A stretch of DNA of 64,000 bases. Source: Escherichia coli. Lineage in GTDB: Bacteria; Pseudomonadota; Gammaproteobacteria; Enterobacterales; Enterobacteriaceae. This document shows, piece after piece, positions 4,151 through 24,947 of the stretch. Numbering within the stretch: the first letter of the stretch is position 1; every line of letters starts with the position of its first letter. The notes beneath the pieces were generated by a model that worked only from the letters and a program-made list of their open reading frames with translations, ran no database searches and was not told the origin of the DNA. The stretch lies in NCBI RefSeq assembly GCF_009931435.1, contig NZ_CP043414.1; one strand, written 5' to 3'. Made by a program: the position numbers and the translations under genes.

Positions 4151-5107
4151 GTGAGACTCGCCCCGCTCTACCGCAACGCCCTTCTTTTAACCGGACTTTT
4201 GCTTTCAGGAATATCTGCAGTTCAGGCTGCCGACTGGCCGCGTCAGATTACTGACAGTCGTGGTACTCATACCCTGGAAAGCCAGCCGCAGCGTATTGTT
4301 TCCACCAGCGTCACCCTGACCGGCTCACTGCTGGCGATTGATGCACCAGTGATCGCTAGCGGCGCGACCACGCCGAATAACCGCGTAGCGGATGACCAGG
4401 GTTTTTTACGCCAGTGGAGCAAGGTGGCGAAAGAACGCAAACTGCAACGGCTCTATATCGGTGAACCAAGTGCCGAAGCGGTGGCCGCGCAAATGCCGGA
4501 TCTGATTTTAATTAGCGCAACCGGCGGTGATTCGGCGCTGGCGCTATACGATCAGCTTTCCACTATCGCACCAACGTTAATCATCAATTACGACGATAAA
4601 AGCTGGCAGTCGCTGTTAACGCAACTTGGCGAAATTACCGGGCATGAGAAACAAGCGGCAGAGCGGATCGCGCAGTTTGATAAGCAACTGACGGCGGCGA
4701 AAGAGCAAATCAAATTACCGCCGCAGCCGGTCACTGCCATTGTCTATACCGCCGCCGCGCACAGTGCCAATCTCTGGACAGCTGAATCAGCACAAGGGCA
4801 GATGCTGGAACAACTCGGCTTTACGCTGGCCAGGTTGCCCGCAGGCTTAAACGCCAGCCAAAGCCAGGGCAAACGCCATGACATCATTCAGCTTGGTGGG
4901 GAAAATCTGGCGGCAGGGTTAAATGGCGAGTCGCTATTCCTGTTCGCCGGTGATCAGAAAGACGCCGATGCGATTTATGCCAATCCACTGCTCGCGCACC
5001 TGCCTGCAGTACAAAACAAGCAGGTTTATGCGCTGGGAACCGAGACGTTCCGACTGGATTACTACAGCGCCATGCAAGTGCTGGATCGGCTTAAGGCGCT
5101 GTTCTAA
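4151..5107 (+). CDS. fepB: Ferric enterobactin periplasmic binding protein FepB
   Basis: 318-aa [23 protein letters not shown]... with GTG start and signal peptide; recognised as FepB. Confidence 0.92.
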
Positions 5108-8465: not shown

Positions 8466-9277
8466 CCGAATCAGTAGCCCGTTTGCGCGGCGAACAGTTA
8501 ACCCTCGGATATGGCAAATATACCGTTGCGGAAAATCTGACTGTAGAAATTCCTGATGGTCACTTCACAGCGATTATCGGGCCAAATGGCTGCGGTAAAT
8601 CCACGTTACTGCGTACCTTAAGCCGCCTGATGACGCCTGCTCACGGGCATGTCTGGCTGGATGGCGAGCACATTCAACATTACGCCAGTAAAGAGGTCGC
8701 ACGCCGGATTGGTTTACTGGCGCAAAACGCCACCACGCCGGGAGATATCACCGTGCAGGAGTTAGTAGCGCGCGGGCGTTACCCGCATCAACCGCTGTTT
8801 ACCCGCTGGCGTAAAGAAGATGAAGAAGCGGTAACGAAAGCGATGCAGGCCACAGGAATAACTCATCTGGCAAATCAAAGCGTTGATACCCTCTCCGGTG
8901 GGCAACGTCAGCGAGCGTGGATCGCGATGGTGCTGGCCCAGGAAACGGCAATTATGCTACTCGACGAACCCACCACCTGGCTGGATATCAGTCATCAGAT
9001 TGATTTGCTGGAATTGTTAAGCGAACTGAACCGCGAGAAAGGCTATACCCTGGCGGCGGTACTGCACGATCTTAATCAGGCCTGTCGGTACGCTAGCCAT
9101 TTGATTGCATTACGTGAAGGGAAAATTGTCGCTCAAGGAGCACCAAAAGAAATAGTCACTGCTGAACTGATTGAGCGTATTTATGGTTTGCGTTGCATGA
9201 TCATTGACGATCCGGTAGCCGGAACTCCGCTTGTGGTGCCGCTCGGACGAACGGCACCTTCAACCGCGAAGATTTAA
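8462..9277 (+). CDS. fepC: Ferric enterobactin ABC transporter ATPase FepC
   Basis: Internal ATG at 8462 gives MTESVARLRGEQLTLGYGKYTV... with Walker A GPNGCGKST and signature LSGGQRQR; the longer 8144 ORF start was rejected because it lies inside fepG. Confidence 0.92.
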   Translation: MTESVARLRGEQLTLGYGKYTVAENLTVEIPDGHFTAIIGPNGCGKSTLLRTLSRLMTPAHGHVWLDGEHIQHYASKEVARRIGLLAQNATTPGDITVQELVARGRYPHQPLFTRWRKEDEEAVTKAMQATGITHLANQSVDTLSGGQRQRAWIAMVLAQETAIMLLDEPTTWLDISHQIDLLELLSELNREKGYTLAAVLHDLNQACRYASHLIALREGKIVAQGAPKEIVTAELIERIYGLRCMIIDDPVAGTPLVVPLGRTAPSTAKI

Positions 9278-10407
9278 ACTAAGTGGTCTGCCATCATGGC
9301 ATCCTGTTTTCTGGATGCCATGGCATGGCGCAACAGCACGCTACCACAAGCCACCATACCGCCGATCAACGCAGAAAGGATCACGATAATCGCCTTACCC
9401 GGACCATCTTTTTTTACCGGTAATGACGGACGCAACTGATATTTAAACGGCGTAAAATTCACATCGTTGACATTTGTTTTTGTTAATTGCTCGACTAGAT
9501 ACTGACGATTACGTAATTCACCATTCAGCTCCGCAACGTCAGTGACCGCTTTTTCAATTTCCAGTTTACGTTCAATACCGTCTGCGCCGAGAGAAATAGA
9601 AAAGTCGGGGTCATCTTTAACTGCCTGACCATTGCTATAAACGGGCTTTTTAATTCCTGCCGCGTTGGCAATGTCGAGTGAATAATTGAGGCGCTGAATG
9701 TTTGCATCAAGTTGGTTTTTCGTTTTAATGCGATCCTGAGCCAGTTTTTCTTTTTCAAACTGGGTTTTGATTTCCAGTTTATTACGGACGTTTTCTAGCG
9801 ACTCTTTCACCACCAACGCAGAGATATAATCGATATACCCGCTCAAAACGGTCTGCGCCTCTTCACTGGTTGGCGCGGTGAAACTTAGCGTCCAGGAGGC
9901 ATACAGTGACGGTTCATCTTTTTTCTTACTGGCATTGTCATCAACCGCTTTCATTTTTTCGCTCAATGCGACGATAGCGCGATGCAAATCCAGTTCGTCG
10001 ATTTTCGCCTCTTTTAATTGGTCCATCACATAAGGTGATGAGCGCAGGTACTCTTCCAGTAAGCTAACAGACTGAAACTTCTTGATAAACAGGTTAAATG
10101 CTTCTGTACGATCAATTTTGATATCCAGATCCAGCACACGAAGCTTAGTGAATGTTTTCTCAAGCGCCTGCCACTGAACAGGTTCTGGAGGCGTGACAAC
10201 CGCCGCGCTGGTCCATTTTTGCGGCAGGATGAAAGAGATCAGTAAACCTGCGCAGGCAAACGCAAAAACGACCGCCATGACCGTTTTTTTGGCCCGCCAT
10301 AAAACTTCAATTAGATTAAGTAAATCAATTTCATTATTACTGGGCGACGCCAGAGGATACTCGGGAAAATGAGCGTCACTTCCCTGTTTAATATTCAGTG
10401 ATGACAT
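9274..10407 (-). CDS. fepE: Polysaccharide co-polymerase family protein FepE
   Basis: ORF containing MSSLNIKQGSDAHFPEYPLASPSNNEIDLLNLIEVLW...; start at the ATG at 10407-10405; convergent 4-nt overlap with the fepC stop. Confidence 0.88.
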   Translation of the reverse strand: MSSLNIKQGSDAHFPEYPLASPSNNEIDLLNLIEVLWRAKKTVMAVVFAFACAGLLISFILPQKWTSAAVVTPPEPVQWQALEKTFTKLRVLDLDIKIDRTEAFNLFIKKFQSVSLLEEYLRSSPYVMDQLKEAKIDELDLHRAIVALSEKMKAVDDNASKKKDEPSLYASWTLSFTAPTSEEAQTVLSGYIDYISALVVKESLENVRNKLEIKTQFEKEKLAQDRIKTKNQLDANIQRLNYSLDIANAAGIKKPVYSNGQAVKDDPDFSISLGADGIERKLEIEKAVTDVAELNGELRNRQYLVEQLTKTNVNDVNFTPFKYQLRPSLPVKKDGPGKAIIVILSALIGGMVACGSVLLRHAMASRKQDAMMADHLV

Positions 10408-10571
10408 GCGGTATAACCTGAAATGGGTCCAATAAGAGTAAATCTCCACGGCCCCCACTTTACCAGTTGGTGAGATTTATCCGAAGCTGAAGTTTGTAAA
10501 TTCCTCCCACTGAATGCAACATTCACTCTATTTCAGAGAAATATCCGTTAAATTGATAAATTAAATAAATA

Positions 10572-10608
10572 ATAAACCCATAATCATTTATTGTAATTAT
10601 GGGTTTAT
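10572..10608 (-). terminator. Perfect 13-bp inverted repeat hairpin downstream of entF (candidate intrinsic terminator)
   Basis: ataaacccataat (10572-10584) and attatgggtttat (10596-10608) are exact reverse complements with an 11-nt loop, in an AT-rich spacer immediately after the entF stop. Confidence 0.5.
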
Positions 10609-10621
10609 AGATAATATAAAT

Positions 10622-13600
10622 TTACTTATTTAGCGCCGCACGAATAATTGGCCCTATTTTTTCAAACGCCATCGGCGAGATAATATCCACATGCGCGCAA
10701 TCATGACGATAGATATCCAGCTCCGCAATCCATGGTGCCCAGGCCCGTTCGGGAGTCATCCCCTCCTGAAGCGTGCGTTCGGCAACAAACAGCGTCGCTT
10801 TTCCATCAAACGGAACACTATGGGCAGTGGTCAACAAGCGCACTGCATCAGCGTAGTTGCCTTCAATGGTGGTAAACAGCTCCGTTGAAGTATTTCCCTG
10901 CTGTGCCGCCAGGAAAGCTTCACGTTCGCGGTTAATCTCCGCCAACACTTCCGGGTCCAGACCATTAGCTTCTTTTTCCTGCCAGTTCTGCGTTTCTGGC
11001 GGCCAGGTATCCAGCAAGCCAAGAAATGCCACCTGTTCGCCACGGGCACGCAGCCGTGCCGCAATCCCCTGCGCCAGCGTACCGCCCAGCGAATACCCCA
11101 GCAGGTAATAAGGGCCGTGCGGTTGTTGTTCAAGTAACGTTGCCAGATGCGCTTCGCAGACTTCATCCAGGTTTGCCGCCGTCTGCATGGGGCCATGAGG
11201 GCGCGGAGACTGGATGCCAATAATCGACCATTGAGGATCGAGATAACGCGAGAGCACGCTAAACTGCCAGGCAAAACCAGATGCTGGATGGAAACAAAAC
11301 AGCGTCGGGCCATTACCTTCACGCAACGGCAGGATGGTTTCAAATCCCATGCGCTGGGTGCTGTCTTCTTCACCATCAATAACCGTTGCCAGTTTGGCGA
11401 CGGTTGACGCGACCATCACCTGCCCCGGCGTCACCTGACGGGCAAACTGTCGACTGAGTTGTGCTGCCAGTTTCATTGCCAGTAGCGAATGACCGCCAAG
11501 CGCGAAGAAATCAGCGTCAGCATCCTGCACGTCACAACCCAGTAATGACGAGAACGCCGCGGCGATAATCGTTTCACTGCCCGCTTTCGGCGCACGCCCC
11601 GACGCTTGTGCCTTCAGTTCCGGCAACGGTAAGGCTTTGCGATCCAGCTTACCGTTGGCGCTAAGTGGTAACTGCGGCAGTTGCAGCAGAACCACGGGCA
11701 CCATATGCGGTGGCAATTTTTCGCGAAGCTGCGCCTGCAATGCGCTGGTATCCAGCGGCAGGCCCGATTGCGACACCAGATAGCCCACCAATTGACGCGC
11801 ATCCCCTCCGGTGGCTGCCGCCTGATTAATCACACAAGCGTGGGTAACTGCTTGCTCGACATCCGGCAGCGCCTGCATCACACGATCGATTTCGCCCAGT
11901 TCAATCCGCTGACCACGAATTTTTAGCTGATCATCACTACGCCCGAGATACTCCGCCGCGCCGTTATCCAGCCAGCGGGCAACATCTCCGGTACGGTACA
12001 TGCGTTCACCGGGCGCGAAAGGATCGGCAATAAAGCGGCTGGCGGTCAGATCGGGTCGTCCAAGATACCCCTGCGCCAGTTGAATACCGGTGAGATAGAG
12101 ATCGCCTGCCACACCCGGCGGCACCGGATGCATCATCGCATCGAGAATGCGCAGGCCCGTGTTCCACACCGGGTAGCCAATCGGCACACTGCTGCCGCGT
12201 ACCGCTGCAAGTTCAGCACCAAAGGCTGGATACCAGCTCACATCCACCGCCGCTTCCGTCGGGCCATAAAGATTATGTAACGGCGCGCCGGTTAACTGCT
12301 GCCATTCGCGACATAAATCGGCTGGTAAGGCTTCTCCGCTACAGAAAACCTGTTTCAACGTCGCGCAACTCTGGCGAGCGGTTTCCGACGTCAGCGAAGC
12401 AACAAACGCCGCCAGCATCGACGGCACAAAATGCGTGGTCGTTACGCCATATTCGGCAAAGAATTGTTGCATAGCGAGCGGATCGCGGTGCGCTTCCGGT
12501 TCAGCCATCACCAGTTTCGCCCCAGCAATAAACGGCCAGAAAAACTCCCACACCGAGACATCAAAACTGCACGGCGTTTTTTGGGCAACAACATCTTCGC
12601 CTGTGAGCGGGTAGTGGTTTTGCATCCATAACAGGCGGTTAACGATAGCCGTCTGCCCGACCATCACCCCTTTCGGCCTGCCGGTGGAACCGGAGGTAAA
12701 GATGATATAAGCCGTGTGGTGCGGTTGTGAAAGTTGCAGCGGCGCACTGCCCTGCGGTGTAAGCGGGGCGTTATAGCAAAGACTGGTTAAATTGGGGATA
12801 TCGCTAAAGCGCGGCAGTTGATCATCGGTGGTGATTAACAGTGACGGACGCGCATCTTCCAGCATCATTTTCAGGCGATCGTCCGGATAGCCCGTATCCA
12901 GCGGTAGCCAGGCCGCACCTGCTTCAACTATCGCATGTAGCGCCATAGTCAAAAAGACCGAGCGCGGTAGTGCCACCGCTACGCTGTCGCCAGGTTTAAC
13001 GCCGCGCTCACGCAGCAGATTCGCCAGCGCCACCACCTGCTCGCGCATTTCCCGATAGCTAAACTGGTAACGCGCATCTGCCAGCGCCGGAGCATCCGGT
13101 GTTTTTGCCGCTTGTTCTGCCACCAGCGCGCTAAGCGTAGTTTCTGGAATCTCAACCTGAGTGGCGTTGATCTGCGCCAGCTGTGCATACTCTTCTGGCA
13201 GCAGAATATCGACATCGCCGCACAACCGCGCCGGATCCGCGGCAAACTGCGCCGTCAGCATTTTCAGCCGTTCAGCATGCTTGATTAACGTTGGCTCATC
13301 GTAACGCTGTTTATTGGCGAGGATCTCAATACTCAAATCACCGTTTTCATCCGGGAAAAGGGCCAGTTCAAGGTCATTAACCGGACCGGTTGCCAGGGTA
13401 TGGGTTTGCGTCTGTACCCCCGGAATATCTAACTGATAATCAAATACTTTAATATTGAGCACCGGACCGAACAGCGGTTCCTCTCCCGCCGCGCGCCCGC
13501 TGTCACGGACAATTTGTTCGGCATCGTAACGTTGATGACGACGCATTTTTTTCAGTTGAGCGGCCAGTCGGGATGCCAGTTGCGGCAATGTTTCTTGTGC

Positions 13601-14503
13601 CTCAATGTGAATACCCAACGGCAACACGTTGAGCACAGGTCCGGTAGCCGTCAGCGCAGCTGAGCCCAGTCGACGCATAAAGATAAATCCGGCGGCATAG
13701 TCCATGTGGTTGCACAATCGCCCCAGCCACAAAGCCGCCAGCGCAAGGGCTATATCGGTACGTTGTACACCTGAAAGTTGCGTAGCCAACTGGCGGAATT
13801 CCCCGCCGTTAAATTCCAGTTTCAGACGCAAAATATCTGCCGAGGCGCTGCGCCCAGGTAAAGGGGCTGGAGAAAGTGACGCGGGCGGTGGTAGTTGACG
13901 ACGTTGCTCCGCCCAGAATGCCGCATCACGCTGCCAGGCTTCGCTTTCGCGATACTGCTGGTACTCTTCCACGACATCAGCGAAAGGCGTAAACGGCGAA
14001 GCCGGTGTTGGTTCGCCACGCATCCATGCACAGTAAATGTTGGCGATCTGGCGGGTAATGACCGGGAAACTGAAGCCATCGACCAGCAAATGGTGGTAAC
14101 GCTGATACCAGTACCAGCGGTTATCTGCCACCTGTATCAGTTGATGAAAAACCAGAGGTTTACCGCTATCGACGCGCAGATCTTGTTGCAAATCCGCCTG
14201 CATTAATGCCTGCGCAATACCGTGCGGATCAATGTTAGTTCGCAGGTCGATAATTTCTGGCAGTTCGAACGTCAGCGCATCATCGACCCATTGCCAGACT
14301 TCGCCGTTATCTTCCGTAAAACGCATCCGCAGCGTATCTGCTTGCGCTAATCCGGCAACCACCGCGCGAGCCAGTAATGGCGCATCAACATCTCCGGTTA
14401 ACTCAACGTAATGCGCCACGCTCCAGGCGGAGGGTAAATCCGACAGTTTTTCTGCCATCCAGATGCCGGGCTGTGCGGCAACTAAAGGTAAATGCTGGCT
14501 CAT
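10622..14503 (-). CDS. entF: Enterobactin synthase component F (NRPS: C-A-PCP-TE)
   Basis: 1293-aa product from the ATG at 14503-14501 (MSQHLPLVAAQPGIWMAEKL...); adenylation motifs (FTSGSTGRPKG), PCP (GGHSLLA) and thioesterase (GYSLGG); the ORF extension to 14641 was rejected. Confidence 0.95.
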   Translation of the reverse strand: MSQHLPLVAAQPGIWMAEKLSDLPSAWSVAHYVELTGDVDAPLLARAVVAGLAQADTLRMRFTEDNGEVWQWVDDALTFELPEIIDLRTNIDPHGIAQALMQADLQQDLRVDSGKPLVFHQLIQVADNRWYWYQRYHHLLVDGFSFPVITRQIANIYCAWMRGEPTPASPFTPFADVVEEYQQYRESEAWQRDAAFWAEQRRQLPPPASLSPAPLPGRSASADILRLKLEFNGGEFRQLATQLSGVQRTDIALALAALWLGRLCNHMDYAAGFIFMRRLGSAALTATGPVLNVLPLGIHIEAQETLPQLASRLAAQLKKMRRHQRYDAEQIVRDSGRAAGEEPLFGPVLNIKVFDYQLDIPGVQTQTHTLATGPVNDLELALFPDENGDLSIEILANKQRYDEPTLIKHAERLKMLTAQFAADPARLCGDVDILLPEEYAQLAQINATQVEIPETTLSALVAEQAAKTPDAPALADARYQFSYREMREQVVALANLLRERGVKPGDSVAVALPRSVFLTMALHAIVEAGAAWLPLDTGYPDDRLKMMLEDARPSLLITTDDQLPRFSDIPNLTSLCYNAPLTPQGSAPLQLSQPHHTAYIIFTSGSTGRPKGVMVGQTAIVNRLLWMQNHYPLTGEDVVAQKTPCSFDVSVWEFFWPFIAGAKLVMAEPEAHRDPLAMQQFFAEYGVTTTHFVPSMLAAFVASLTSETARQSCATLKQVFCSGEALPADLCREWQQLTGAPLHNLYGPTEAAVDVSWYPAFGAELAAVRGSSVPIGYPVWNTGLRILDAMMHPVPPGVAGDLYLTGIQLAQGYLGRPDLTASRFIADPFAPGERMYRTGDVARWLDNGAAEYLGRSDDQLKIRGQRIELGEIDRVMQALPDVEQAVTHACVINQAAATGGDARQLVGYLVSQSGLPLDTSALQAQLREKLPPHMVPVVLLQLPQLPLSANGKLDRKALPLPELKAQASGRAPKAGSETIIAAAFSSLLGCDVQDADADFFALGGHSLLAMKLAAQLSRQFARQVTPGQVMVASTVAKLATVIDGEEDSTQRMGFETILPLREGNGPTLFCFHPASGFAWQFSVLSRYLDPQWSIIGIQSPRPHGPMQTAANLDEVCEAHLATLLEQQPHGPYYLLGYSLGGTLAQGIAARLRARGEQVAFLGLLDTWPPETQNWQEKEANGLDPEVLAEINREREAFLAAQQGNTSTELFTTIEGNYADAVRLLTTAHSVPFDGKATLFVAERTLQEGMTPERAWAPWIAELDIYRHDCAHVDIISPMAFEKIGPIIRAALNK

Positions 14504-14718
14504 TGCGCCTCCTGCTGCTGGATGAAATTCGCCGGTGTCAGAGTACGCCAGTGGGCGTCCAGCCACTGCTGGCAGGACGCCTGTGACTGCGGCTGACACA
14601 CAACATCCCAGCCTGCCGGTAAGGCGCACTGTTGCGGCCACAGACTGAATTGCCCCTGCGCATTGCGTAAAATGTAAAACACGCCCTGCGGATCATCGAA
14701 GGGATTACTGAATGCCAT
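14500..14718 (-). CDS. ybdZ: MbtH-like protein YbdZ
   Basis: 72-aa MAFSNPFDDPQGVFYILRNAQGQFSLWP... from the ATG at 14718; the stop overlaps the entF start (ATGA). Confidence 0.9.
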   Translation of the reverse strand: MAFSNPFDDPQGVFYILRNAQGQFSLWPQQCALPAGWDVVCQPQSQASCQQWLDAHWRTLTPANFIQQQEAQ

Positions 14719-14720
14719 AT

Positions 14721-15923
14721 TCAACTCCTGTCATGGAAAAGTGGTTGCCAGAGGTCGATTAGCCCCTGCATCAAGCCACCGCGCCAACAAAGCGCATCAT
14801 GTCCGCCGTCAACCTGACGCCAGAAAATGGATTCTTTTAGGGGGGGTAATTGCGCATACAGCGCCTGATTGGCCCGCATAATCATCGGCTCGCGAAGACC
14901 CGCTTCCAGCACAATGCGCAGACCTTCGGCGCTAACTTCACCAGCTTTGAGCTGTTCAAGTAACATGCCCTCTTGCTGACCGCTCCGGTGCGGCCACCAG
15001 TACGATCCCGACTGGCTTAATACACAGCCAAAGCGTTCAGGCCAGTGCAGTCCGGCATACAGCGCGGAAAGCCCACCAAAACTCTGCCCGGCGACCACAG
15101 TACGATCGGCGCGATCGCTAAAGGGGGCGATAGTTTTCACCTGGGGTAATAACTCTTGCTGTACTGCCAGCCAGAAATCCGCATTACATGGCAGTTCGTG
15201 GGCACGTTGCGTGGTGTCGATAGCGTCGATCAACACGTACACGGCGGGAGGAAGTTGCTGACGATGGGTCAACGAAGTCAGCGCAGGCCAGACGGGCATA
15301 CTCTGCGCCCAAAATTCGCCATCAAGTAAAACTGCCAGCGGACGTTCTTCTGCTGTTGCATCGCCGGTGGTAAAAATCCATACACGGCGTGAATTTTTCA
15401 ACCGTTCACTTTTCCAGATAATTTCTTTGGCAGGCGTTTCTGGCGCTTGCGGACAATCCCATCCTGGTTGCAGGGGCGCTTGCGGCATTTCGAGTGCAGA
15501 AACAGCGTGCCCTCGCCCGCCTTTCCAGCTTTGTGGATTCAGCGGATCGGCTATCGCCAGGGGTAATAGTTTTCGCCAGCCTTCGCGCAATTCGAGGCGA
15601 TCAGGTGATGGAGCAGAAAAAATGTCATCACGTTCGGTAGGAATAAAACAGTAGCTGCCGCGCCAGTTGGCATTGAGTTGTGTCGTCCACTGCCAGACAT
15701 CGGTCCCTGCAATTCGCTGCATCGACTGGGGCTGGCTGTTCTGATGGTGATCGGTCACGCCAGTGATATAGACCCATACGCGCTTTATCGTCGAGTGGTC
15801 TTCAGAACCTTGTGGATCACGCCACCAGAAAGTGACCTGATACATTTCGTCATTCAGACGCTGACATTCCGGGCCATGTTTCGACTGCCACCAGCTCTCA
15901 CTTCCTACTTTTAACGCCGTCAC
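14721..15923 (-). CDS. fes: Enterochelin esterase Fes
   Basis: 400-aa ORF MTALKVGSESWWQSKHGPE... with serine hydrolase motif GQSFGG; directly upstream of ybdZ-entF. Confidence 0.92.
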   Translation of the reverse strand: MTALKVGSESWWQSKHGPECQRLNDEMYQVTFWWRDPQGSEDHSTIKRVWVYITGVTDHHQNSQPQSMQRIAGTDVWQWTTQLNANWRGSYCFIPTERDDIFSAPSPDRLELREGWRKLLPLAIADPLNPQSWKGGRGHAVSALEMPQAPLQPGWDCPQAPETPAKEIIWKSERLKNSRRVWIFTTGDATAEERPLAVLLDGEFWAQSMPVWPALTSLTHRQQLPPAVYVLIDAIDTTQRAHELPCNADFWLAVQQELLPQVKTIAPFSDRADRTVVAGQSFGGLSALYAGLHWPERFGCVLSQSGSYWWPHRSGQQEGMLLEQLKAGEVSAEGLRIVLEAGLREPMIMRANQALYAQLPPLKESIFWRQVDGGHDALCWRGGLMQGLIDLWQPLFHDRS

Positions 15924-16004: not shown

Positions 16005-16165
16005 GCAATAGCGTAATGGCGCGCCGTGGGAAGCGCGGACATTAATTAACCAACTGCACTGCGTGTCTTTCAGGATCAAAGGTTTTCGCGGTAGCGGGAT
16101 ACGTCGTATTGATGACGACTACGCCCGACAGTTGCAATTCGTGGCAAAAATGCAGGAATAAAACA

Positions 16166-18406
16166 ATGAACAAGAAGATTCATTCCCTGGCCTTGTTGGT
16201 CAATCTGGGGATTTATGGGGTAGCGCAGGCACAAGAGCCAACCGATACTCCTGTTTCACATGACGATACTATTGTCGTTACCGCCGCCGAGCAGAACTTG
16301 CAGGCGCCAGGCGTTTCGACCATCACCGCAGATGAAATCCGCAAAAACCCGGTTGCCCGCGATGTATCGGAGATCATTCGTACCATGCCTGGCGTTAACC
16401 TGACAGGTAACTCCACTAGTGGTCAGCGTGGTAATAACCGCCAGATTGATATTCGCGGCATGGGTCCGGAAAACACGCTGATTTTGATTGACGGTAAGCC
16501 TGTCAGCAGCCGTAACTCGGTGCGTCAGGGCTGGCGTGGCGAGCGTGATACCCGTGGTGATACCTCCTGGGTGCCGCCTGAAATGATTGAACGTATTGAA
16601 GTTCTGCGTGGTCCGGCAGCTGCGCGTTATGGCAACGGCGCGGCGGGCGGCGTGGTTAACATCATTACCAAAAAAGGCAGCGGCGAGTGGCACGGCTCCT
16701 GGGATGCTTATTTCAATGCGCCAGAGCATAAAGAGGAAGGTGCCACCAAACGCACCAATTTCAGCTTGACCGGTCCGCTGGGCGACCAATTCAGCTTCCG
16801 TTTATATGGCAACCTCGACAAAACTCAGGCTGATGCGTGGGATATTAACCAGGGCCATCAGTCAGCGCGTGCCGGAACGTATGCCACGACGTTACCAGCC
16901 GGGCGCGAAGGGGTGATCAACAAAGATATCAATGGCGTGGTGCGTTGGGACTTCGCCCCTATGCAATCACTCGAACTTGAAGCGGGCTACAGCCGCCAGG
17001 GTAACCTGTATGCAGGTGATACCCAAAACACCAACTCCGATTCCTATACGCGCTCGAAATATGGCGATGAAACCAACCGCCTGTATCGCCAGAACTACTC
17101 GCTGACCTGGAACGGTGGCTGGGATAACGGCGTGACCACCAGCAATTGGGTGCAGTACGAACACACCCGTAACTCGCGTATACCGGAAGGTTTGGCGGGC
17201 GGCACCGAAGGGAAATTTAACGAAAAAGCGACACAAGATTTCGTCGATATCGATCTTGATGACGTGATGTTGCACAGCGAAGTTAACCTGCCGATTGATT
17301 TCCTCGTTAACCAGACGCTGACGCTGGGGACTGAGTGGAATCAGCAGCGGATGAAGGACTTAAGTTCCAACACCCAGGCGCTGACCGGAACGAATACCGG
17401 CGGTGCTATTGATGGTGTGAGTGCCACCGACCGTAGCCCATATTCAAAGGCAGAAATTTTCTCGCTATTTGCCGAAAACAACATGGAGCTGACTGACAGC
17501 ACCATCGTAACGCCGGGGCTGCGTTTCGATCATCACAGCATTGTCGGCAATAACTGGAGTCCGGCGCTGAATATATCGCAAGGTTTAGGCGATGACTTCA
17601 CGCTGAAAATGGGCATCGCCCGTGCTTATAAAGCGCCGAGCCTGTACCAGACTAACCCGAACTACATTCTCTACAGTAAAGGTCAGGGCTGCTATGCCAG
17701 CGCGGGCGGCTGCTATTTGCAGGGTAACGACGACCTGAAAGCGGAAACCAGTATCAACAAAGAGATTGGGCTGGAGTTCAAACGCGACGGCTGGCTGGCT
17801 GGCGTCACCTGGTTCCGTAACGATTATCGCAATAAGATTGAAGCGGGCTATGTGGCTGTAGGGCAAAACGCAGTCGGCACCGATCTCTATCAGTGGGATA
17901 ACGTGCCGAAAGCGGTGGTTGAAGGTCTGGAAGGATCGTTAAACGTACCGGTTAGCGAAACGGTGATGTGGACCAACAACATCACTTATATGCTGAAGAG
18001 TGAAAACAAAACTACGGGCGACCGTTTATCGATCATCCCGGAATATACGTTGAACTCAACGCTGAGCTGGCAGGCACGGGAAGATTTGTCGATGCAAACG
18101 ACCTTCACCTGGTACGGCAAGCAGCAGCCGAAGAAGTACAACTATAAAGGTCAGCCAGCGGTTGGCCCGGAAACCAAAGAAATCAGTCCGTACAGCATTG
18201 TGGGTCTGAGCGCGACCTGGGATGTGACGAAGAATGTCAGTCTGACCGGCGGCGTGGACAACCTGTTCGACAAACGTTTGTGGCGTGCGGGTAATGCCCA
18301 GACCACGGGCGATCTGGCAGGAGCCAACTATATCGCCGGTGCCGGGGCGTATACCTATAACGAGCCGGGACGTACATGGTATATGAGCATTAATACGCAC
18401 TTCTGA
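16166..18406 (+). CDS. fepA: TonB-dependent ferric enterobactin outer membrane receptor FepA
   Basis: 746-aa product from the ATG at 16166 (MNKKIHSLALLVNLGIYGVAQAQEP...), TonB box DTIVVTA, C-terminal ...TWYMSINTHF. Confidence 0.95.
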   Translation: MNKKIHSLALLVNLGIYGVAQAQEPTDTPVSHDDTIVVTAAEQNLQAPGVSTITADEIRKNPVARDVSEIIRTMPGVNLTGNSTSGQRGNNRQIDIRGMGPENTLILIDGKPVSSRNSVRQGWRGERDTRGDTSWVPPEMIERIEVLRGPAAARYGNGAAGGVVNIITKKGSGEWHGSWDAYFNAPEHKEEGATKRTNFSLTGPLGDQFSFRLYGNLDKTQADAWDINQGHQSARAGTYATTLPAGREGVINKDINGVVRWDFAPMQSLELEAGYSRQGNLYAGDTQNTNSDSYTRSKYGDETNRLYRQNYSLTWNGGWDNGVTTSNWVQYEHTRNSRIPEGLAGGTEGKFNEKATQDFVDIDLDDVMLHSEVNLPIDFLVNQTLTLGTEWNQQRMKDLSSNTQALTGTNTGGAIDGVSATDRSPYSKAEIFSLFAENNMELTDSTIVTPGLRFDHHSIVGNNWSPALNISQGLGDDFTLKMGIARAYKAPSLYQTNPNYILYSKGQGCYASAGGCYLQGNDDLKAETSINKEIGLEFKRDGWLAGVTWFRNDYRNKIEAGYVAVGQNAVGTDLYQWDNVPKAVVEGLEGSLNVPVSETVMWTNNITYMLKSENKTTGDRLSIIPEYTLNSTLSWQAREDLSMQTTFTWYGKQQPKKYNYKGQPAVGPETKEISPYSIVGLSATWDVTKNVSLTGGVDNLFDKRLWRAGNAQTTGDLAGANYIAGAGAYTYNEPGRTWYMSINTHF

Positions 18407-24889: not shown

Positions 24890-24896
24890 TTAAAAA

Positions 24897-24927
24897 ATCC
24901 GCTCTCATCGAATGGATGAGAGCGGAT
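24897..24927 (-). terminator. Perfect 13-bp stem hairpin between convergent ybdG and pheP (intrinsic terminator; the U-tract is on the pheP strand)
   Basis: atccgctctcatc (24897-24909), loop gaatg, gatgagagcggat (24915-24927); preceded on the plus strand by aaaaaa, giving a T-run on the minus strand. Confidence 0.6.
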
Positions 24928-24947
24928 TCAGATGGTTGACTTCGTTT

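Follow-up and report, generated by a model that had tools for sequence, protein, structure and literature searches.

Intrinsic terminators of the Enterobacteriaceae provide the closest described counterpart to the element that we analyze here. They form a stem-loop on the sense strand with a directly adjoining U-rich tract just past the stop codon, they show compensatory changes in the stem, and they have an A-rich 5′ flank able to pair with the first U residues. The hairpin found between entF and fepE resembles them in each of these respects. It departs from the usual members of the class in being unusually A-U-rich (3 G-C pairs of 15), in the interruption of its U-tract and in its position only 13 nt from the stop codon, and it is known here from sequence. 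The effect of such proximity has been described for the lambda terminator tR2, which is nearly inactive when placed 8-9 bp from a stop codon, reaches 0.12-0.8 at 17-18 bp depending on the sequence, and is maximal beyond 30 bp (PMC4824070). By analogy with a stop-proximal tR2, the 13-nt distance may provide a mechanism for leakiness of the entF hairpin, with the difference that the tR2 figures come from a synthetic reporter (PMC4824070). REP/BIME and ERIC elements are likewise intergenic palindromes at the 3′ ends of genes, and GC-rich REP-like repeats occupy the entF-fepC spacer of Klebsiella and Leclercia. Unlike these repeats, the entF hairpin is a single-copy element of AT-rich sequence that leads into a U-tract, and it has no sequence similarity to them.

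The gene downstream is itself known to be regulated. Footprinting in Salmonella placed an RcsB box between -36 and -22 relative to the fepE start site mapped there (PMC7913699), and in EHEC H-NS acts as a repressor that binds the promoter region of fepE, where its DNase I footprint is TTTGCTGGTTATT (PMC8669466). In papers with EcoCyc-style operon names the four genes appear as a single unit, fes-ybdZ-entF-fepE. We searched the literature for an entF terminator and came across no relevant description, and a terminator at the entF-fepE junction appears to be previously undescribed. In the 64-kb window (the whole stretch of E. coli DNA that was analyzed), we consider it likely that the palindrome at 10572-10608 is an intrinsic terminator of the fes-ybdZ-entF transcript, a leaky one that insulates fepE; its activity in termination, its independence of Rho and its leakiness are what we infer from the features described below.

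The entF-fepE junction and its palindrome

The Fur-regulated fes-ybdZ-entF transcript ends with entF, which lies on the minus strand at 10622-14503 with its stop codon at 10622-10624 (NCBIfam EntF equivalog, 2812 bits). Family searches confirmed fes upstream of it (14721-15923) and the divergent fepA (16109-18406), while the putative ybdZ open reading frame (14500-14724) is named by its position, the family search having given no match. Downstream of the hairpin lies fepE, or wzz(fepE), at 9274-10407 on the minus strand, identified as a Wzz(fepE) equivalog (623 bits) and by the RefSeq annotation of matching genomes. The next gene, fepC, converges on fepE: the fepE stop at 9274 on the minus strand and the fepC stop at 9277 on the plus strand produce a convergent overlap of 4 nt. 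Just beyond the fepC stop, inside the 3′ end of fepE, there is a perfect 10-bp inverted repeat (9295-9304 and 9313-9322), and this sequence at 9295-9322 is a candidate for a terminator of fepC that lies within a coding region.

The spacer between entF and fepE (10408-10621) is 214 bp long with a GC content of 33%, in agreement with the AT-rich spacer of roughly 200 bp described in a first-pass annotation made from the sequence alone. RefSeq annotates no feature in this spacer in the matching E. coli genomes. The same annotation had reported an exact 13-bp inverted repeat with an 11-nt loop, and this is indeed present at 10572-10608, as ATAAACCCATAAT-CATTTATTGTA-ATTATGGGTTTAT, with perfect 13-bp arms at 10572-10584 and 10596-10608 and a gap of 11 nt. 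Its close placement after entF also holds, although the distance to the stop codon is 13 nt (10609-10621) and not the 14 nt initially given, a figure that was either off by one or counted differently. On the minus strand, the RNA stem gains an A-U and a G·U pair inward, resulting in 15 pairs (3 G-C, 11 A-U and 1 G·U) around a CCC/GGG core and leaving a loop of 7 nt. This sense-strand hairpin has a predicted folding energy of -15.4 kcal/mol and a z-score of -4.7, the plus strand folding slightly more poorly. When the spacer was shuffled with its dinucleotide composition preserved, none of 5000 shuffles contained a perfect inverted repeat of at least 13 bp, and the longest, found twice, reached 12 bp. 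Two perfect inverted repeats of at least 13 bp were observed in the whole window against 0.017 expected. The sole other one is a 14-bp repeat at 24896-24928, AATCCGCTCTCATC-GAATG-GATGAGAGCGGATT.

The hairpin is followed on the minus strand by a U-rich tract, UUUAUUAUUUAUUUAAUUU (10558-10576), which begins right after the GGG core and is supported by the terminator scan and by T counts in 24 sequences. Its first 5 nt double as the outer A-U pairs of the stem: the sequence downstream of the stem reads UAUUUAUUUAAUUU, and the tract counted from the GGG core reads UUUAUUAU. U occupies 6 of the 8 positions after the core in the window, where A residues break the tract, and 7 of 8 in K-12; runs of 6-8 U are found in Salmonella, in Citrobacter and in a second type of E. 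coli spacer. A consensus terminator scan of 10200-10900 returned the hairpin and its tract as the only terminator-like match. Folding and terminator prediction, the checks that had been proposed for the palindrome, thus both came out in favor of a terminator. By classical criteria it would be a weak one, given a stem with no more than 3 G-C pairs and a broken U-tract.

Conservation and covariation of the hairpin

A FepE-based scan with one genome per species yielded 77 loci, in 21 of which entF lies directly upstream of fepE. These 21 loci come from Escherichia, Citrobacter, Salmonella arizonae and diarizonae, and Intestinirhabdus, and every one of them has a hairpin 13-56 nt past the entF stop. 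In 20 of the 21 the hairpin is homologous to that of the window, with the core CCATAAT...ATTATGG, folding energies of -10 to -19 kcal/mol and T-rich tails. The distance from stop codon to hairpin is 13 nt in the Escherichia type represented by the window and 21-39 nt in Citrobacter and Salmonella. The remaining locus, from Citrobacter sp. MGH106 (L016:1185-1280), has kept the hairpin only in a decayed form, separated from the entF stop by an inserted ERIC-like element that contains AAGTAAGTGACTGGGGT.

Conservation across the Enterobacteriaceae had been suggested as a further check, and the homologous hairpin is in fact kept with compensatory changes in Escherichia, Citrobacter, Salmonella and Intestinirhabdus. 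In an alignment of 24 sequences covering a 12-pair helix, 97.2% of the cells are paired and 8 of the 12 pairs have changed on both sides. None of 500 shuffles reached the observed values, slid controls were only 37-50% paired, and RNAalifold independently recovered the same 12-pair helix. Read on the sense strand, these 24 sequences contain 29 G·U cells versus 3 A·C cells, and the 10 nt on the 3′ side of the helix contain on average 6.9 T versus 2.9 A in the 10 nt of the 5′ flank. The covariation, the sense-strand bias toward G·U and the one-sided T-tract together argue for an RNA hairpin on the entF-sense strand and not for a DNA operator. Neither an operator nor a cruciform would tolerate G·U positions or need a T-tract on one side, and both are therefore disfavored.

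Since the hairpin is absent both from fepE elsewhere and from entF without fepE, it belongs to the entF-fepE junction. The possibility that it travels with fepE was rejected, as it is missing from the upstream region at over 50 loci where a fepE homologue lies away from entF, among them loci in Enterobacter, Lelliottia, Buttiauxella and Cedecea. Its being a property of entF that does not depend on an adjacent fepE was rejected as well, since Klebsiella, Leclercia and their relatives (L085-L090), in which entF and fepC converge directly and are separated by a short, REP-like and GC-rich spacer, have no homologous hairpin. In Serratia another gene lies downstream of entF. These arrangements give fepE, together with its AT-rich spacer, the appearance of having been inserted into the enterobactin cluster in the Escherichia/Salmonella/Citrobacter lineage.

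Within E. coli, the spacer was matched, always in a single copy, in about 4880-4890 of 5426 complete genomes. Only about 140 genomes have a spacer at least 99% identical to that of the window, most being 80-90% identical. Of six representative spacer variants, five share the same stem arms, and the loop and flanks vary among them. The K-12 type has one mismatch in an outer pair together with a better tail, GGGUUUUUUAUUUGUUUG, and the perfect 13-bp symmetry is thus a detail of the lineage of the window and not a conserved feature. About 10% of the E. coli genomes have a second, unalignable spacer type of 246 bp (an example is E. coli THO-006, L091:2701-2946). It contains AAAACCATAAT-N11-ATTATGGTTTT followed by TTTTTATTC, 36 nt after the stop. 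Compared with the hairpin of the window, this version shows a compensatory change from C-G to A-U and a longer U-run (U8), and the spacer retains the RcsB box.

Two further observations concern the history of this region. In E. coli 2021CK-01361 (L006:767-1366) an IS1 borders the fepE promoter region on its upstream side, and the IS1 junction falls just past the T-tract of the hairpin; the hairpin and the entF side are not adjacent there. The region 9274-13000 of the window also diverges from other E. coli genomes in a mosaic manner. Identity over 2 kb of entF amounts to only 90-95% with 5396 of 5414 genomes, and over fepE to 95-99% with 3919 genomes, and only about 146 genomes have an identical spacer. 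This pattern of divergence suggests recombination or a divergent lineage.

Expression across the junction and competing explanations

Published RNA-seq data from UPEC CFT073 report ratios between a fur mutant and the wild type of 388 for fes, 158 for ybdZ, 294 for entF and 4.9 for fepE (PMC7157518 Table S1), a fall in Fur-dependent induction of roughly 60-fold from entF to fepE. Exposure of ExPEC to serum raises fes, ybdZ and entF at least 2-fold, with fepE responsive to complement only, while in MG1655 under mild pressure entF is up 13.7-fold and fepE is not among the listed genes. These data indicate that attenuation between entF and fepE is strong but incomplete. A high basal level of fepE could partly account for the gap in fold change between the two genes, but fepE mRNA is undetectable in K-12 grown in rich medium, which counts against a high basal level hiding read-through. 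The residual 5-fold effect of Fur on fepE is most simply explained by read-through. When we looked for 3′ ends at entF and fepE, neither gene appeared in the Term-seq supplements of Adams 2021 or TERMITe (E. coli), the probable reason being that iron-replete media leave entF silent.

The reading of the palindrome as the terminator of fes-ybdZ-entF, which had been put forward as the probable one in the first-pass annotation, is thus supported from several sides. The terminator scan, the covariation in four genera and the restriction of G·U pairs and T-tract to the sense side point to a stem-loop on the sense strand with a U-rich tract at its 3′ side and selection at the level of RNA. This stem-loop lies past the stop codon, with a conserved promoter-like block for the next gene about 90 bp downstream, and the published RNA-seq data show the corresponding drop.

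The drop from entF to fepE would fit equally well if the hairpin were a protective 3′ stem-loop, transcription stopping further downstream (for instance by Rho in the untranslated AT-rich spacer) and exonuclease trimming then stabilizing the entF message. Rho-terminated RNAs are trimmed by exonucleases back to stable hairpins, and the GC-poor stem and the interrupted U-tract in the lineage of the window would suit such a process. One study places Rho-dependent 3′ ends at stable structures (PMC6061677). Yet a T-rich tract lies directly 3′ of the stem in all the lineages and genera compared, and K-12 and the second spacer type have near-canonical runs of 6-8 U. A block to exonucleases has no need of such a tract, whereas intrinsic termination does, and we consider a purely protective role unlikely.

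Whether the palindrome acts as DNA depends on how it is placed relative to the known regulator sites. An alignment of the whole spacer shows two conserved blocks, namely the hairpin with its tail and, about 90 bp downstream, a block with an RcsB box and a -10 element that is kept across Escherichia, Citrobacter and Salmonella. This second block (10457-10484, minus strand) comprises the RcsB-box homologue TCGGATAAATCTCA at 10471-10484, an exact match to the Salmonella box, followed by the extended -10-like sequence TGgTAAAGT at 10457-10465. Its homology to the mapped Salmonella site, the motif match and the cross-genus conservation suggest that it probably marks fepE's own promoter, with a predicted transcription start near 10448. 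The position homologous to the H-NS footprint, placed by alignment and motif scan at 10540-10552 on the minus strand, reads TTTAACGGATATT and lies 20 nt downstream of the hairpin and outside it (PMC8669466). Judging from the positions of the conserved blocks and of the homologues of mapped sites, the spacer is ordered as stop codon, putative terminator, AT-rich H-NS region, promoter and fepE. Control of fepE, an O-antigen length gene, would be separate from that of the iron-regulated entF message. Beside the hairpin, the sequence TTGATAAATT at 10553-10562 is similar to tCGATAAATT, the high-affinity motif of H-NS. Another palindrome, TGAATG-CAA-CATTCA at 10511-10525, lies upstream of the putative fepE promoter; it is Escherichia-specific, is unchanged in six E. 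coli spacer variants, and may be a transcription-factor site.

The palindrome could in principle be a DNA site for a dimeric regulator, or for H-NS nucleation, that controls fepE, and a protein-binding site upstream of this gene had indeed been offered as the second reading of its perfect symmetry. The AT-rich DNA, the perfect dyad in the lineage of the window and the repression of the fepE promoter region by H-NS in EHEC (PMC8669466) are in its favor. The stem bases nonetheless covary with pairing kept, and G·U positions break the dyad symmetry in many species, such that the sequence is not conserved together with its symmetry. Nor does the hairpin match a Fur or RcsB site or overlap an H-NS footprint: a Fur-box scan gave no match within 7 of 19 mismatches, the H-NS footprint homologue is 20 nt further downstream and the RcsB box about 90 bp away. 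The hairpin would also be about 124-160 bp upstream of the predicted fepE start site, and the more than 50 fepE homologues found apart from entF have no such hairpin upstream of them. All of this makes control of fepE through a DNA site at the palindrome very improbable, and the protein-binding suggestion did not hold up. A PmrA site was rejected: a scan with a PmrA-like motif gave one weak, degenerate match in AT-rich sequence, and K-12 fepE is not PmrA-induced.

Although enterobacterial intergenic palindromes are often REP or ERIC elements and one Citrobacter genome has an ERIC-like insertion in this very spacer, a dispersed repeat (REP/BIME, ERIC or MITE-like) or a chance palindrome in AT-rich DNA is hardly tenable, as the element occupies a median of 1 and a maximum of 2 places per genome in 4890 E. 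coli genomes, has no second copy within the 64-kb window, matched no family at the hairpin in an Rfam 15 covariance-model scan of 9000-12000 with E up to 10, and exceeds in arm length anything found in the shuffled spacers.

A probable leaky terminator upstream of fepE

If the palindrome is a leaky intrinsic terminator, transcription from the Fur-controlled fes promoter would run through ybdZ and entF to the hairpin. Once the polymerase has passed 10572 on the minus strand, the RNA would fold into the 15-bp A-U-rich stem with its CCC/GGG core, and this stem with the directly adjoining U-rich stretch would release most transcripts within the U-tract, at roughly 10560-10572. Expression of fepE would then depend mainly on a promoter of its own about 90-125 bp downstream, which has the RcsB box and would be silenced by H-NS, and a small, iron-dependent read-through into fepE would persist. 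Termination is probably incomplete because the U-tract is interrupted by A and because the stem lies only 13 nt from the stop codon, where a trailing ribosome could hinder its folding. The analogy with tR2 at this distance and the interrupted tract both make partial read-through plausible.

A more speculative extension, to which we give a small but real chance, is that the hairpin is a deliberately leaky and tunable insulator, in which the distance to the stop codon and the polymorphism of the U-tract set the amount of Fur-dependent read-through to fepE. The U-tract does vary, from UUUAUUAU in the window to UUUUUUAU in K-12 and U8 in the second spacer type. If this were true, the production of very-long O-antigen chains would be tied to iron starvation, to a degree differing by lineage. 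More generally, an fepE gene that is largely insulated from the Fur-controlled transcript would affect how expression data on the iron regulon and on O-antigen chain length are to be read.
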